From Escherichia coli (GTDB lineage Bacteria > Pseudomonadota > Gammaproteobacteria > Enterobacterales > Enterobacteriaceae): a stretch of 64,000 nt of DNA. Shown one piece after another: positions 920-59,919 of the stretch. Location of the stretch: assembly GCF_030013205.1 (NCBI RefSeq), contig NZ_CP122648.1; one strand, 5' to 3'. Under the pieces are notes generated by a model. The model saw nothing but the letters and a program-made list of their open reading frames with translations, did no database searches and had not been told where the DNA came from. The translations under genes and the position numbers were made by a program. Each line of letters begins with the position of its first letter. Within the stretch, counting starts at the first letter, position 1.

Positions 920-1000
920 TTGTAGGCCGGATAAGGCTTTTACGCCGCATCCGGCAGCCGTTGCCTGATGCGACGCTAGCGCGTCTTATCAGGCCTACAC
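920..1000. repeat. REP/BIME palindromic units (gtaggccggataaggc...gccgcatccggca and gcctgatgcg...cttatcaggcctac)
   Basis: Two inverted REP-consensus copies directly visible downstream of infB stop. Confidence 0.8.
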
Positions 1001-2464: not shown

Positions 2465-2830
<366 letters not shown>

Positions 2831-2846
2831 TTCTTGCGAGTTTCAG

Positions 2847-2875
2847 AAAAGGGGGCCTGAGTGGCCCCTTTTTTC
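2847..2875 (+). terminator. rpsO rho-independent terminator (gggggcc tgagt ggcccc + T-tract)
   Basis: Hairpin plus U-run directly seen 20 nt after rpsO stop. Confidence 0.85.
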
Positions 2876-3020
2876 AAGCTGACGGCAGCAATTCACTGGA
2901 AACTAATGTATTGTTGCTATGAATGATCTTCCGTTGCAGAGGTTCGCGCGGCTAATGAGAGGCTTTACCCACATTGGGCTGGGTTAGGGTTGTCATTAGT
3001 CGCGAGGATGCGCAGAAGAT
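2847..3020 (-). ncRNA. sraG: candidate antisense sRNA in rpsO-pnp intergenic/pnp leader (SraG-like position)
   Basis: Placement from remembered K-12 annotation only; not independently supported by sequence features I can compute. Confidence 0.3.
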
Positions 3021-3076
3021 CGGGTATTAACACCAGTGCCGTAAGGTACTGTCTAAGAAAGAGAAAGGATATTACA

Positions 3077-5212
3077 TTGCTTAATCCGATCGTTCGTAAA
3101 TTCCAGTACGGTCAACACACCGTGACTCTGGAAACCGGCATGATGGCTCGTCAGGCTACTGCTGCTGTTATGGTTAGCATGGATGACACCGCGGTATTCG
3201 TTACCGTTGTTGGTCAGAAAAAAGCCAAACCAGGTCAGGACTTCTTCCCACTGACCGTTAACTATCAGGAGCGTACCTACGCTGCTGGTCGTATCCCGGG
3301 TAGCTTCTTCCGTCGTGAAGGCCGCCCAAGCGAAGGCGAAACCCTGATCGCGCGTCTGATTGACCGCCCGATTCGCCCGCTGTTCCCGGAAGGCTTCGTC
3401 AACGAAGTTCAGGTTATCGCCACCGTGGTTTCTGTTAACCCGCAGGTTAACCCGGATATCGTCGCGATGATTGGTGCTTCCGCAGCACTGTCTCTGTCTG
3501 GTATTCCGTTCAATGGTCCGATTGGTGCTGCCCGCGTAGGTTACATCAATGACCAGTACGTACTGAACCCGACTCAGGACGAGCTGAAAGAGAGCAAACT
3601 GGATCTGGTTGTTGCCGGTACTGAAGCCGCTGTACTGATGGTTGAATCTGAAGCTGAACTGCTGAGCGAAGACCAGATGTTGGGCGCAGTAGTGTTCGGT
3701 CATGAACAACAGCAGGTTGTCATTCAGAACATCAATGAACTGGTGAAAGAAGCCGGTAAACCGCGTTGGGACTGGCAGCCGGAGCCGGTAAACGAAGCGC
3801 TGAACGCGCGCGTTGCTGCACTGGCTGAAGCTCGTCTGAGCGATGCTTACCGCATAACCGACAAACAAGAGCGTTATGCGCAGGTTGATGTCATCAAATC
3901 TGAAACCATCGCGACGCTGCTTGCTGAAGATGAAACCCTGGACGAAAACGAACTGGGTGAAATTCTGCACGCTATCGAGAAAAACGTTGTTCGTAGCCGC
4001 GTACTGGCAGGCGAACCGCGTATCGACGGTCGTGAAAAAGATATGATTCGTGGTCTGGATGTGCGTACTGGCGTGCTGCCGCGTACTCACGGTTCTGCGC
4101 TGTTCACCCGTGGTGAAACTCAGGCGCTGGTTACCGCAACGCTGGGTACTGCACGTGACGCGCAGGTTCTTGATGAACTGATGGGCGAACGTACTGACAC
4201 CTTCCTGTTCCACTACAACTTCCCTCCGTACTCCGTAGGCGAAACCGGCATGGTCGGTTCTCCGAAGCGTCGTGAAATTGGTCACGGTCGTCTGGCGAAG
4301 CGCGGCGTGCTGGCAGTCATGCCGGATATGGACAAATTCCCGTACACCGTACGTGTTGTGTCTGAAATCACTGAATCCAACGGTTCCTCTTCTATGGCTT
4401 CCGTGTGCGGCGCGTCTCTGGCGCTGATGGACGCAGGTGTGCCGATCAAAGCTGCTGTTGCGGGTATCGCAATGGGTCTGGTGAAAGAAGGCGACAACTA
4501 CGTTGTACTGTCTGACATTTTGGGCGACGAAGATCACCTGGGCGATATGGACTTCAAAGTTGCGGGTTCCCGCGACGGTATCTCTGCATTGCAGATGGAT
4601 ATCAAAATTGAAGGTATCACCAAAGAGATCATGCAGGTTGCGCTGAACCAGGCTAAAGGTGCGCGTCTGCATATCCTGGGCGTAATGGAACAGGCGATCA
4701 ACGCGCCGCGTGGCGATATCTCTGAGTTCGCTCCGCGTATCCATACCATCAAGATCAACCCGGACAAGATCAAAGACGTTATCGGTAAAGGCGGTTCTGT
4801 TATCCGTGCTCTGACCGAAGAAACTGGCACCACCATCGAAATCGAAGATGACGGTACTGTGAAAATCGCAGCGACCGACGGCGAGAAAGCGAAACATGCT
4901 ATTCGTCGTATCGAAGAGATCACTGCAGAAATCGAAGTGGGCCGCGTCTACAATGGTAAAGTGACCCGTATCGTTGACTTTGGCGCATTTGTTGCCATCG
5001 GCGGCGGTAAAGAAGGTCTGGTACACATCTCTCAGATCGCTGACAAACGCGTTGAGAAAGTGAACGATTACCTGCAGATGGGTCAGGAAGTACCGGTGAA
5101 AGTTCTGGAAGTTGATCGCCAGGGCCGTATCCGTCTGAGCATTAAAGAAGCGACTGAGCAGTCTCAACCTGCTGCAGCACCGGAAGCTCCGGCTGCTGAA
5201 CAGGGCGAGTAA
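3077..5212 (+). CDS. pnp: polynucleotide phosphorylase (711 aa, TTG start)
   Basis: ORF track 2990..5212; canonical N-terminus [16 protein letters not shown] begins at TTG 3077; KH and S1 domains at C-terminus. Confidence 0.95.
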
Positions 5213-55419: not shown

Positions 55420-56730
55420 ATGTTTGATTCGACTTTAAATCCGTTATGGCAGCGTTACATCCTCGCCGTTCAGGAGGAAGTAAAACCGGCGCTGGGATGT
55501 ACTGAACCGATTTCACTGGCGCTGGCGGCGGCGGTTGCTGCGGCAGAACTGGAAGGTCCGGTTGAACGTGTAGAAGCCTGGGTTTCGCCAAATCTGATGA
55601 AGAACGGTCTGGGCGTCACCGTTCCCGGCACGGGAATGGTGGGGCTGCCAATTGCGGCGGCGCTGGGAGCGTTAGGTGGAAATGCTAACGCCGGGCTGGA
55701 AGTGCTGAAAGACGCAACTGCGCAGGCAATTTCCGATGCCAAAGCACTGCTGGCGGCGGGGAAAGTCTCAGTTAAGATCCAGGAACCTTGCGATGAAATC
55801 CTCTTCTCACGCGCCAAAGTCTGGAACGGTGAGAAGTGGGCGTGTGTCACCATCGTCGGCGGGCATACCAACATTGTGCATATTGAGACGCACAATGGTG
55901 TGGTGTTTACCCAGCAGGCGTGTGTGACAGAGGGCGAGCAAGAGTCGCCGCTGACGGTGCTTTCCAGAACGACGCTGGCTGAGATCCTGAAGTTTGTCAA
56001 TGAAGTGCCGTTTGCGGCGATCCGCTTTATTCTCGATTCCGCGAAGTTAAATTGCGCGTTATCGCAGGAAGGTTTGAGCGGTAACTGGGGGCTGCATATT
56101 GGCGCGACGCTGGAGAAACAGTGCGCGCGCGGCTTGCTGGCGAAAGATCTCTCTTCATCCATTGTGATTCGTACCAGCGCGGCATCCGATGCGCGTATGG
56201 GCGGCGCTACGCTTCCGGCGATGAGTAACTCCGGCTCGGGTAACCAGGGGATCACTGCAACAATGCCTGTGGTGGTGGTAGCAGAACACTTCGGGGCCGA
56301 TGATGAACGGCTGGCGCGTGCGCTGATGCTTTCGCATTTGAGCGCGATTTACATCCATAACCAGTTACCGCGTTTGTCTGCGCTGTGTGCCGCAACGACC
56401 GCAGCAATGGGGGCCGCCGCCGGGATGGCATGGCTGGTGGATGGGCGTTATGAAACCATCTCGATGGCGATCAGCAGTATGATCGGCGATGTCAGCGGCA
56501 TGATTTGCGATGGTGCGTCGAACAGCTGCGCGATGAAGGTTTCGACCAGTGCTTCGGCTGCGTGGAAAGCGGTGTTAATGGCGCTGGATGATACCGCCGT
56601 GACCGGCAATGAAGGGATCGTGGCGCATGATGTTGAGCAGTCGATTGCCAACCTGTGTGCGTTAGCAAGCCATTCGATGCAGCAAACGGATCGGCAGATT
56701 ATCGAGATTATGGCGAGCAAGGCCAGATAA
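55420..56730 (+). CDS. cyuA: L-cysteine desulfidase (436 aa)
   Basis: ORF track; K-12 yhaM equivalent. Confidence 0.9.
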
Positions 56731-56749: not shown

Positions 56750-56856
<107 letters not shown>

Positions 56857-56862
56857 CTGTCT

Positions 56863-57030
56863 TTACGCGGTAGCTTCATCCTCGGCTAAACGCGTTTCAG
56901 CATCCGCGACGATGGCTTCCAGCTCGCTCAACATCTCTTCATAGCCAAAATTTTTGGCGGTGCGAGCAGGTTCTTTCGCCACCACGGGCTTCACTGGCTG
57001 ACGCTTTTTGGCCGATTTTTTACTCATCAT
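56863..57030 (-). CDS. yhaL: small protein YhaL (about 54-55 aa), absent from ORF track (below 60 aa)
   Basis: Manual minus-strand translation: MMSKKSAKKRQPVKPVVAKEPARTAKNFGYEEMLSELEAIVADAETRLAEDEATA; gggag SD upstream. Confidence 0.7.
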   Translation of the reverse strand: MMSKKSAKKRQPVKPVVAKEPARTAKNFGYEEMLSELEAIVADAETRLAEDEATA

Positions 57031-57049
57031 CATCTCCCTGTTAAAACAA

Positions 57050-57751
57050 CTAGACAGGCAAATCTATCAGCAAAGCGCGCAGTGGGGAATCGGCAACCAG
57101 CGTAATGTTAGCCTCGTCACGAATAAACGCCCCATCACCGCAGGTTAGCGCCGCTTTCTCTTCATGATGCGTAAGCGCATGAAATTTCCCGTGAATCGAT
57201 TGCAAATACGCGCGTGGCCCATGCAACTGGAAATTCGCACTTTCGCCTTTGTCGAGCACGATATGGTGCAGCCACACTTGTTGGCGTAATTGCAGGCTTC
57301 CCATCGCACCCTCTGGCGAGGCGATTAATTGCTGCTTGTCCATATTAAGCGCCAGCTTTTGAATCAGCGGATTCTCTCGCTGCGGGCAGGCATCCAGCCA
57401 AAGCTGCATTCGCGTTAACGGTTTGTCTTTGCTGAGATTGTGTTCGCTATAGCTGACACCCGGCTGGGTAGAGAGCAGCAACGCCTCACCGGAGCTGGCC
57501 TGAACATGATTGCCTTCGCTGTCGCGATACTCTGCTTCTCCATCCAGAATCACATTTAAAATATCGACTTTGGGATAGGTTCGCGGCTGAAAGGCGGCAC
57601 CTGGGGCCAGCACTTCCTGGTTAAGCACGCGCAGGGAGGCATAGCCTAACAATTTCGGGTCGAAGTAGTGTCCAAAGGAAAAAGTATACCGGGCCTGCAA
57701 CCATCCGTAGTCTGCTTGTCCACACTGCCTGGCAGTTCGGGTAGTAATCAT
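57050..57751 (-). CDS. yhaK: pirin-like cupin protein (233 aa)
   Basis: ORF track. Confidence 0.9.
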   Translation of the reverse strand: MITTRTARQCGQADYGWLQARYTFSFGHYFDPKLLGYASLRVLNQEVLAPGAAFQPRTYPKVDILNVILDGEAEYRDSEGNHVQASSGEALLLSTQPGVSYSEHNLSKDKPLTRMQLWLDACPQRENPLIQKLALNMDKQQLIASPEGAMGSLQLRQQVWLHHIVLDKGESANFQLHGPRAYLQSIHGKFHALTHHEEKAALTCGDGAFIRDEANITLVADSPLRALLIDLPV

Positions 57752-57855
57752 AATTCTTGACCTCTCTTTACTTCCTTTTATGGTAAGGGGCTGGACGCTA
57801 CATTGTTAGCCAGATATTCTGCCCGGTATGTTCAAATTTCCTGAATGAGAACGAA

Positions 57856-58802: not shown

Positions 58803-59159
58803 TTAATTTGAACCAAATTTCGGATCGTTTCCGTAACGATTGCTGCCAGAATTGCCCTCTAAACAGGCAAATACAAACAGAACTAACCAGCCAATGATCG
58901 GTACCAGATAGAGAAGCGCCCACGCACCTGAACGGTCAGTATCATGCAGACGACGAACGCACAGAGCAATGACCGGAATGATTGTTGCTGCCAGGTAAAT
59001 GAGAGAAAGGAACGGAAACTCTAAACCTAAAATCAATTGAATGACATTGATAATAGCGCCGACGATGGCGTTAATCAGAGTAAACATCCAGTACTCTTTA
59101 CGACGTGCGCGACCAGAGAAACCAACATAATTTTTTAATACGGATAAATACCACTGCAT
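58803..59159 (-). CDS. yhaI: DUF805 inner membrane protein (118 aa)
   Basis: ORF track. Confidence 0.9.
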   Translation of the reverse strand: MQWYLSVLKNYVGFSGRARRKEYWMFTLINAIVGAIINVIQLILGLEFPFLSLIYLAATIIPVIALCVRRLHDTDRSGAWALLYLVPIIGWLVLFVFACLEGNSGSNRYGNDPKFGSN

Positions 59160-59400: not shown

Positions 59401-59766
59401 TTAAGGTTCCAGTTTTGGATCAGGTCCAAAGCGGTTTTCGCCTGGCGTACCCGCCTGGCAGTTAAAGACGATGATAATAAGCCAGCCGATAAACGGGATT
59501 AAGAACAGCAGTGCCCACCACGCCGAGCGGTCGGTGTCGTGCAGGCGGCGGAACTGAACCGCCCACCACGGTAAAAACACCAGAATACCGTAGATTGTTG
59601 TCAGGATGCCTTCGCCACCAGCGCGTTGCCAGCCTAACATTTTATCCAGCAGCCCCAGCACGAACGTAAAGATGATGTTGACCAGAATAAACATCCAGTA
59701 CTCTTTGCGCCGCGCACGACCCCGGAAACCGACATAATTTTTTAGTACTTTCAGATACCAGTCCAT
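59401..59766 (-). CDS. yhaH: DUF805 inner membrane protein (121 aa), paralog of yhaI
   Basis: ORF track 59401..59787; likely start MDWYLKVLKNYVGF. Confidence 0.88.
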   Translation of the reverse strand: MDWYLKVLKNYVGFRGRARRKEYWMFILVNIIFTFVLGLLDKMLGWQRAGGEGILTTIYGILVFLPWWAVQFRRLHDTDRSAWWALLFLIPFIGWLIIIVFNCQAGTPGENRFGPDPKLEP

Positions 59767-59919
59767 TTTTGCCTCAATTTTGCTCAATCACTTGTTTTTA
59801 AAGCAGCAAATTAAGAATAGACGTGAATGAAATGGCAGTAAATATTCGTTCAAGGAATTAATAAAGTGCCGTGAAGGCGCGCTAAGACTGATGACAAGCG
59901 CAAAATCGCCAGATGCGCT

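Follow-up and report, generated by a model that had tools for sequence, protein, structure and literature searches.

The yhaK-yhaL locus

The window is a stretch of 64,000 nucleotides from Escherichia coli, and the small reading frame considered here lies on its minus strand, where the first-pass annotation had correctly set it between a REP cluster and yhaK, with two REP hairpins on one side and yhaK (57050-57751) on the other. The genes and sites referred to below are as follows, with positions given for the whole window.

55420-56730, plus strand: cyuA (yhaM), cysteine desulfidase; convergent neighbour, outside the conserved unit
56750-56856, no strand: BIME with two inverted REP hairpins, directly 3' of yhaL, between the convergent yhaL and cyuA
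56863-57027, minus strand: yhaL coding sequence, 54 codons plus stop, read from the third ATG; RefSeq WP_001295544.1
56866-56949, minus strand: codons 27-54, putative acidic amphipathic helix, the conserved core
56908-56934, minus strand: codons 32-40, near-invariant motif MLSELEAIV, aligning with XseB residues 14-22 (ALSELEQIV)
56950-57027, minus strand: codons 1-26, fast-evolving tail, usually Lys/Arg-rich and predicted to be disordered
57028-57033, minus strand: two extra in-frame ATGs before the conserved start, in Escherichia only
57034-57038, minus strand: Shine-Dalgarno sequence GGGAG, abutting the first ATG and 6 nt from the third
57028-57049, minus strand: yhaK-yhaL spacer of 22 nt, holding the Shine-Dalgarno sequence and the two extra ATGs
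57050-57751, minus strand: yhaK, pirin-family bicupin of 233 aa, upstream cistron of the putative operon
57752-57855, no strand: interval whose position was deduced from gene coordinates (PMC7315121, PMC5031710)

The reading frame is yhaL (b3107), an E. coli gene annotated before, and there is no hidden gene at this position. A 501-nt query around it is matched over at least 80% of its length in 5,388 of 5,426 complete E. coli genomes, and the features annotated under these matches are 'yhaL: protein YhaL', 'yhaK: pirin family protein' and 'cyuA: cysteine desulfidase'. The yhaL-like small-protein gene of the first-pass annotation is yhaL itself, as RefSeq loci annotated yhaL match the window DNA at 100% identity, and its exact 54-aa sequence, found on more than 1000 contigs, bears the name 'protein YhaL' or 'hypothetical protein'. 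The RefSeq annotation carries the gene in essentially all of the 5,388 matching E. coli genomes; its absence from the ORF track, noted in the first-pass annotation, is due solely to the 60-aa cutoff, below which it does fall in the default ORF listing. The papers searched name the gene in lists alone. The y-ome survey gives YhaL as uncharacterised and 'followed by repeat sites' (PMC11551758), and a literature search that included Ribo-seq supplements found no direct translation or interaction evidence for the protein.

Both the minus-strand ORF and the GGGAG Shine-Dalgarno sequence proposed for it are present in the window. The frame ends in a TAA codon (56863-56865, minus strand) and begins with three tandem in-frame ATGs, at 57033-57031, 57030-57028 and 57027-57025 on the minus strand, that would give products of 56, 55 and 54 aa, respectively. 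RefSeq uses the third of these, which also has the best Shine-Dalgarno spacing (the canonical 6 nt), and its position is the sole start codon conserved in other genera, where there is no in-frame start upstream. In other Escherichia the two extra ATG positions vary, and read AAG-ATG, ATG-GTG or ATG only. The likely start, judged from this comparison, is therefore the third ATG (57027), so that of the 55-aa gene at 56863-57030 described earlier the ORF and its stop stand, and the start, which had been placed at the second ATG, moves to the conserved third (56863-57027).

The yhaK gene terminates with TAG at 57052-57050 (minus strand), and the 22-nt spacer that follows has the sequence TTGTTTTAACAGGGAGATGATG, after which yhaL opens with ATG AGT AAA AAA. 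The annotated order is yhaJ, then yhaK and yhaL on the opposite strand, and then the convergent cyuA and cyuP. Among 80 species compared, all 80 have yhaL on the same strand as an intact or recognisable yhaK and downstream of it, at a distance of 3-35 nt (median about 25), and the adjacency recurs in independently fetched loci (L002-L006 and L008-L013); in one further locus (L007) only a cut ORF is visible upstream of yhaL, and it was not identified as yhaK. The block yqjG-yhaH-yhaJ<>yhaK-yhaL is syntenic in every locus with enough flanking sequence. What follows yhaL is variable: Escherichia, Salmonella and Citrobacter have cyuA there, Dryocola has murA, one metagenomic lineage has a glycerate kinase gene, and still other genes occur in further lineages, with K. 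indica also differing. In three of the 80 genomes yhaK is disrupted and yhaL is intact, two of them (complete genomes) having multiple frameshifts in yhaK and one a stop codon, although the two multi-frameshift cases may be assembly errors and three cases are too few to interpret.

No terminator-like site or credible promoter was found in the yhaK-yhaL spacer of the window, and the single promoter-like match would start transcription inside yhaL. A published operon table enters 'yhaK,yhaL' as one operon (PMC4448311). The divergent LysR regulator YhaJ binds and activates the yhaK promoter, which is inducible by DNT and hydroquinone, strongly by the latter (PMC5031710, PMC7315121). Because the short same-strand linkage holds in 80 of 80 species whatever gene follows, yhaK and yhaL are probably one operon, and we strongly infer from the gene arrangement that they are co-transcribed under the control of YhaJ.

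On the downstream side, one of the two inverted REP hairpins spans 56750-56790 and the other 56818-56856, and a further REP copy recurs at 922-955 in the window; the 501-nt query around the ORF matches a median of 30 places per genome. As a rule REPs stabilise the mRNA upstream of them, and this could explain why yhaL RNA behaves unlike that of yhaK in some data sets. In long-term stationary phase yhaL is specifically up and yhaK is not in the same list (PMC7406224), which hints at separate regulation or at differential mRNA stability. The convergent yhaL-cyuA pair has also been listed as an excludon (PMC12288877).

Conservation of yhaL and the selection acting on it

The spread of the family was examined by two routes. 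A word-indexed search together with an exhaustive profile search of 1.84 billion representatives yielded 76 family representatives at E <= 1e-3, nearly all of 45-60 aa, and none of the 76 matches is a fusion of YhaL to pirin or to any other domain; a few long matches (P0131, P0145) are unrelated, eukaryote-type repeat proteins and were set aside. A scan of one genome per species over 100,044 species, using the pattern ELEAIVx[DE]A, found 90 relatives, of which 80 were kept. These represent about 25 genera, all Enterobacteriaceae, among them Escherichia, Salmonella, Citrobacter, Klebsiella, Raoultella, Kluyvera, Kosakonia, Phytobacter, Trabulsiella, Pseudocitrobacter, Superficieibacter, Atlantibacter, Franconibacter, Pluralibacter, Buttiauxella, Cedecea, Dryocola, Entomohabitans and others. 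All 80 species have an intact ORF, of 49-65 aa, and the frame is kept through changes in tail length. Its start codon is ATG in 43 species, GTG in 27 and TTG in 10, and in the orthologs inspected a GGAG-type Shine-Dalgarno sequence stands 5-8 nt before it.

We estimated dN/dS by the Nei-Gojobori method, comparing E. coli with E. albertii, E. marmotae and a further clade; this within-Escherichia comparison was used since dS is saturated between genera, which makes inter-genus dN/dS unusable. Whole yhaL has a dN/dS of 0.07-0.16 at a dS of 0.43-0.67, and yhaK a dN/dS of 0.04-0.07 at a dS of 0.33-0.69. Within yhaL the constraint is uneven, with dN/dS of 0-0.04 in codons 27-54 (the core) and 0.12-0.33 in codons 2-26 (the tail), and the same division is seen in dN between genera (0.07-0.3 for the core versus 0.4-1.5 for the tail). 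The conservation of the reading frame across enterobacteria, which had been put forward as the check on this gene, is thus borne out by the low dN/dS and by an ORF and Shine-Dalgarno sequence that are kept in 80 of 80 Enterobacteriaceae species. On this comparative evidence yhaL is a true coding gene under purifying selection, and we consider it close to certain that the coding gene is genuine and forms a unit with yhaK.

The contrary proposition is that the ORF is non-functional, a chance or decaying frame whose conservation comes from an RNA element, the yhaK 3' UTR or the REP region. In its favour there is no direct protein evidence, there is no Pfam family, and REPs adjoin the gene. However, dN/dS lies far below 1 while dS is unsaturated and at the level of the neighbouring gene; as yhaL and yhaK have about the same dS, the conservation can be explained without an embedded RNA element. 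The frame is kept across the 80 species through switches of start codon and with a conserved Shine-Dalgarno sequence, and a chance ORF is unlikely given that purifying selection and conservation in 80 of 80 species go far beyond expectation. Rfam has no match on the yhaL coding sequence, its sub-threshold naRNA4 matches falling on the REPs outside it, and the REPs are missing from most orthologous loci, where the ORF persists. The comparative data effectively refute this proposition.

The gene call alone changes nothing, as yhaL is in every E. coli annotation. What is added for this y-ome gene is that it is under purifying selection about as strong as that on its enzyme neighbour, that it is restricted to the Enterobacteriaceae, and that it is never found apart from yhaK. 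It follows from the last point that phenotypes of yhaK deletions, such as accumulation of DNT or hydroquinone inducers, could involve yhaL, either by polarity or through a joint function. In yqjF::lux induction by DNT or hydroquinone, loss of yhaK has a 66-fold effect.

Architecture of YhaL and candidate roles for its helix

AlphaFold2, run with a 38-member alignment, predicts no structure for residues 1-28 (pLDDT 60-70) and one helix at residues 29-53 (pLDDT above 90). E. coli YhaL is rich in Lys/Arg over residues 1-26 and in Glu/Asp over residues 27-54, in agreement with the earlier description of a lysine-rich N-terminus followed by an acidic helix. This composition is not uniform over the family: the tail is poorly conserved, and some lineages lack its basic character. 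In a set of 90 distinct orthologs it has 22-34 residues and a median net charge of +5 (range -1 to +8); in nine of them the charge is at most +1, as in the Kosakonia forms starting MNS.VTKISFES. The core has a median net charge of -8 across the same 90.

The most strongly conserved residues fall within the predicted helix. In an alignment assembled without any search pattern (A2), M32, L33, E35, L36, E37 and I39 never change, and A38, V40, A43 and R46 are conserved to 90% or more; in the 80 scanned loci E35-V40 and A43 do not vary at all, but part of this comes from the scan having required ELEAIVx[DE]A. The helix has a conserved hydrophobic stripe made up of Y29, M32, L33, L36, I39, V40, A43 and L47, and the conservation extends to charged residues on its other faces. 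Since eight of nine consecutive core residues are invariant, charged ones included, a specific interface is suggested, beyond mere amphipathicity. We therefore propose that the acidic helix is the conserved functional core of YhaL, and the pattern points to a helix with most of its surface buried in a specific partner rather than a generic amphipathic helix.

In Pfam scans neither the single protein nor the 38 family members matched a family, and matches such as those to a RecQ-1-like HTH model were dismissed as weak noise (E >= 0.055). The sole match in a PDB profile search was a gyrase B/A fusion with an E of 2.2, which we regard as chance, despite the topical overlap with ExoVII and quinolones. 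AlphaFold2 was also applied to a YhaK-(GGGGS)5-YhaL fusion, and gave a poor model, with a mean pLDDT of 64.8 and the YhaL helix lowered to 56-71. This lends no support to docking on YhaK, but with a shallow paired alignment of 28 species and an artificial linker the run was a weak test and does not speak against a complex either.

Three roles for these elements can be weighed against the pattern of conservation. The explanation that fits best overall, and towards which we lean with modest confidence, is that yhaL is the small-protein gene of a YhaJ-driven yhaK-yhaL operon and encodes a helix-docking accessory product; the docking mechanism itself, with a partner from the YhaK pathway, is a narrower claim that we put forward with low confidence. 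According to this proposal a (hydro)quinone would act through the YhaJ-activated yhaK promoter to give a yhaK-yhaL transcript with yhaL as its second cistron. The MLSELEAIV core of the YhaL helix would be the functional element, packing on a helix or groove of the partner in the way that helix 1 of XseB, the small subunit of exonuclease VII, packs in a three-helix bundle with XseA, and the tail would be a flexible and electrostatically active appendage. The partner would most likely come from the YhaK/YhaJ quinone-response unit, which is ranked first because of the 100% linkage.

A second role, which we think unlikely, is that of a nucleic-acid- or ribosome-associated stress protein, in which RNA, DNA or ribosomes would be bound by the basic tail, much as in small ribosome-associated proteins of stationary phase, with a regulatory or auto-inhibitory part left to the acidic helix. 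A tail that is strongly basic in most lineages (median +5) would suit such binding, and the rise of yhaL in long-term stationary phase (PMC7406224) is consistent with a stress function. In Salmonella transposon libraries yhaL was listed as one of the genes under strong selection (PMC3487940), which points the same way, although this result is weak for a target of 165 bp. What disfavours nucleic-acid or ribosome binding is that the tail is the least conserved part of the protein, with a dN of 0.4-1.5 between genera, whereas selection is concentrated on the acidic helix; moreover, the tail charge falls to +1 or less in 9 of the 90 orthologs, Kosakonia being an example.

Thirdly, the helix might self-associate into a homo-oligomeric coiled coil or bundle independently of YhaK, so that linkage of the two genes would reflect shared transcription only. 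The conserved hydrophobics M32, L33, L36, I39, V40, A43 and L47 do have a/d/g-type spacing, and yhaL is intact in the three genomes with a disrupted yhaK. However, the invariance of E35, E37 and R46 on the other faces exceeds what a simple coiled coil needs, and a median net charge of -8 in the helix disfavours homo-association without a basic partner. We consider self-association of this kind improbable, to about the same degree as the binding of nucleic acids or ribosomes. The preferred reading remains docking of the YhaL helix on a specific partner.

Resemblance to XseB and to other known systems

The near-invariant core of YhaL, FGYEEMLSELEAIV, specifically resembles helix 1 of XseB, and this nine-residue helix core, which is the sole conserved element of YhaL, is thus similar to the XseB helix that grips XseA. 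XseB is an 80-aa alpha-helical hairpin, six copies of which grip each XseA stalk helix in tandem three-helix bundles, and it reads only a few hydrophobic positions on XseA (PMC10835039). When E. coli YhaL was compared with NCBIfam, the only matches were two XseB equivalog models (E of 0.026 and 0.05), and when 38 family members were compared, six XseB models topped the list, the two best each matching 12 of the 38 with a best E of 2.5e-4. One YhaL ortholog has been automatically named 'exonuclease VII small subunit' by JGI. Alignment by hhalign to an XseB alignment from 14 genera places YhaL residues 27-43 (FGYEEMLSELEAIVADA) on XseB residues 9-25 (ASFEKALSELEQIVTRL), with 47% identity over 17 columns, a P of 7.9e-5 and a probability of 61%. 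The real score of 25.6 was not exceeded by any of 600 column shuffles (9.4 +/- 2.0, maximum 17.5), and reversed controls scored about 10. YhaL also carries the XseB helix-1 motif F-E-x-x-L-x-E-L-E-x-I-V.

Other comparisons place YhaL apart from XseB. The NCBIfam scores of about 14 bits do not reach the XseB cutoffs of 71 and 92, the Pfam XseB family PF02609 has no match to YhaL even at E <= 10, BLASTP gives no alignment of YhaL with XseB, so that the similarity is visible to profile methods only, and a PDB sequence-profile search with YhaL did not find XseB. The two-helix hairpin of about 70-80 aa is likewise lacking, as AlphaFold2 predicts the single helix 29-53 and YhaL ends 11 residues after the aligned segment. 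Because the thresholds, Pfam, BLASTP, the PDB profile, the second helix and the locus all fail to agree with XseB, we place YhaL outside the XseB family. The protein looks like the first helix of XseB and may derive from it, and a resemblance confined to 13-17 columns could be convergent.

One can nevertheless ask whether YhaL acts on exonuclease VII (ExoVII), as an XseB-derived half hairpin, consisting of helix 1, that binds XseB sites on the long helix of XseA, or pairs with XseB itself, and modulates the assembly or the activity of ExoVII upon induction of the YhaJ regulon. The specific similarity of YhaL 27-43 to XseB 9-25, the M-x-K-K with which both proteins start and the JGI name given to one ortholog are in keeping with this, as is the loose hydrophobic recognition of XseA, for which sub-stoichiometric complexes have been considered possible (PMC10835039). 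One strain evolved under fluoroquinolone was reported to carry a yhaL-truncating structural variant (PMC12363166), and quinolone-trapped gyrase is repaired by ExoVII (PMC7929499); we rejected the truncation as evidence, however, since the list in that paper holds 50 heterogeneous mutations and this one was called as a structural variant adjoining REP repeats. Against the ExoVII role are the scores far under the XseB thresholds (about 14 versus 71-92 bits) and the absence of a PF02609 match, the missing helix 2 and C-terminal tail, without which a lone helix cannot form a three-helix bundle with XseA, and the linkage of yhaL to yhaK rather than to xseA or xseB. Taken together these points leave a role in ExoVII modulation quite improbable.

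A fuller version of this idea supposes a history as well, in which YhaL would be an offshoot of XseB that arose from the 5' half of xseB in an Enterobacteriaceae ancestor, was captured behind yhaK, and now tunes the assembly or the activity of ExoVII under the YhaJ quinone-stress regulon. We regard such an origin and role as very improbable, and give no better chance to the accompanying suggestion that the single helix has kept the ability to bind where XseB docks on XseA, or else to partner XseB. If the offshoot were real, it would link quinone or electrophile stress to the repair of DNA-protein crosslinks, such as those of quinolone-trapped gyrase.

Set beside known proteins, the gene in the window corresponds to that of E. 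coli K-12 YhaL (b3107), being the same gene in the same place between yhaK and cyuA with no sequence difference. The YhaL of B. subtilis, a sporulation protein, has the name alone in common and is encoded by an unrelated Firmicutes gene; some of the 'yhaL' literature refers to it. XseB (PF02609; PDB 8TXR, 1VP7) is like YhaL in being short, acidic and helical, in starting M-x-K-K and in its identical hydrophobic spacing, whereas YhaL is without the turn, helix 2 and the C-terminal tail, has an N-terminal linker about 17 residues longer, and is encoded next to yhaK, unlike the xseB locus. A broader comparison is with the small regulatory proteins that bind larger proteins (10.1101/511675), which YhaL resembles in its size of about 50 aa, its single structured helix, its position as a tail cistron by a larger gene and its lack of room for an enzymatic domain. 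The characterised members of that group are for the most part hydrophobic helices in membranes; YhaL, by contrast, carries a high charge and is predicted to be soluble.

Start codons and termini of the yhaL product

The yhaL reading frame opens with a run of ATGs that is specific to part of its phylogenetic range.

57025-57033 (-), three tandem in-frame ATGs at the yhaL start

Within Escherichia the first two of these codons vary, being AAG-ATG in four orthologous loci (L012, L016-L018) and ATG-GTG in E. marmotae (L011), and the other genera lack both upstream ATGs. Gene callers therefore return products of 54, 55 or 56 aa for what is one gene.

The protein ends also vary. At the loci of Kosakonia and relatives (L047, L054, L058, L079 and L082-L084, at about 3426-3608 of each locus) the N-terminal tail is non-basic, for example MNSCVTKISFESV... 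or MSSTMNFMTDPTQ... as against MSKKSAKK, with the helix core unaltered; the basic-then-acidic pattern that the first-pass annotation described is therefore not universal. At the other end, an extension of about 10 residues runs past the helix in Superficieibacter (L022, L025) and Enterobacteriaceae UBA5654 (L061), ending in ...IPDGAALSRTV or ...PVPDKTALSRD, and is absent from the other orthologs.

L022, L025 and L061, 3501 to about 3698, extended yhaL

Relationship of yhaL to yhaK

Three loci carry a disrupted yhaK beside an intact yhaL, with frameshifts in Kluyvera genomosp. 3 (L028) and Enterobacter sp. EA-1 (L048), and an in-frame stop in Trabulsiella odontotermitis (L075).

L028, L048 and L075, about 2715-3476, disrupted yhaK

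These could be true pseudogenes or long-read assembly errors; if the disruptions are real, they suggest that yhaL is able to persist without YhaK. Deletion of yhaK makes yqjF induction by DNT 66-fold higher, and the inducer persists (PMC5031710). The strain behind the yhaK deletion phenotypes is a Keio deletion lying directly upstream of yhaL, and that study does not consider whether the deletion is polar on yhaL or whether YhaK and YhaL function jointly.

The sole fitness hint available for yhaL itself comes from Salmonella transposon libraries (PMC3487940), in which it figures on a list of strongly selected genes, and may be an artefact of the small target.

L002, 3001-3165, Salmonella yhaL
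L013, 1501-1665, Salmonella yhaL
L019 and L029, 3501-3665, Salmonella yhaL

Neighbouring DUF805 genes, REPs and convergent cyuA

Upstream of yhaJ lie two tandem paralogs whose products both start M..YL.VLKNYV.F.GRARRKEYWMF; in RefSeq the first of them in the block is called yhaH, and the other has no name. In every other genus examined, the conserved block includes one DUF805 gene.

58803-59159 (-), DUF805 membrane-protein gene
59401-59787 (-), DUF805 membrane-protein gene

Downstream, one 34-nt REP sequence adjoining yhaL recurs elsewhere in the window with 1 mismatch.

922-955 (-), REP copy
56821-56854 (-), REP copy

The REPs adjoining yhaL match Rfam naRNA4, a nucleoid-associated RNA derived from REP, at 41.5 and 34.2 bits, below the gathering score of 59.5. 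The BIME that they form occupies the gap of only about 130 nt between yhaL (56863-57027, -) and the convergent cyuA (55420-56730, +). On the basis of overlapping RNA-seq signal, the two genes have been listed as a transcriptional 'excludon' (PMC12288877). Given this, yhaK-yhaL read-through may interfere with how cyuA, the gene for cysteine desulfidase, is expressed, or vice versa.
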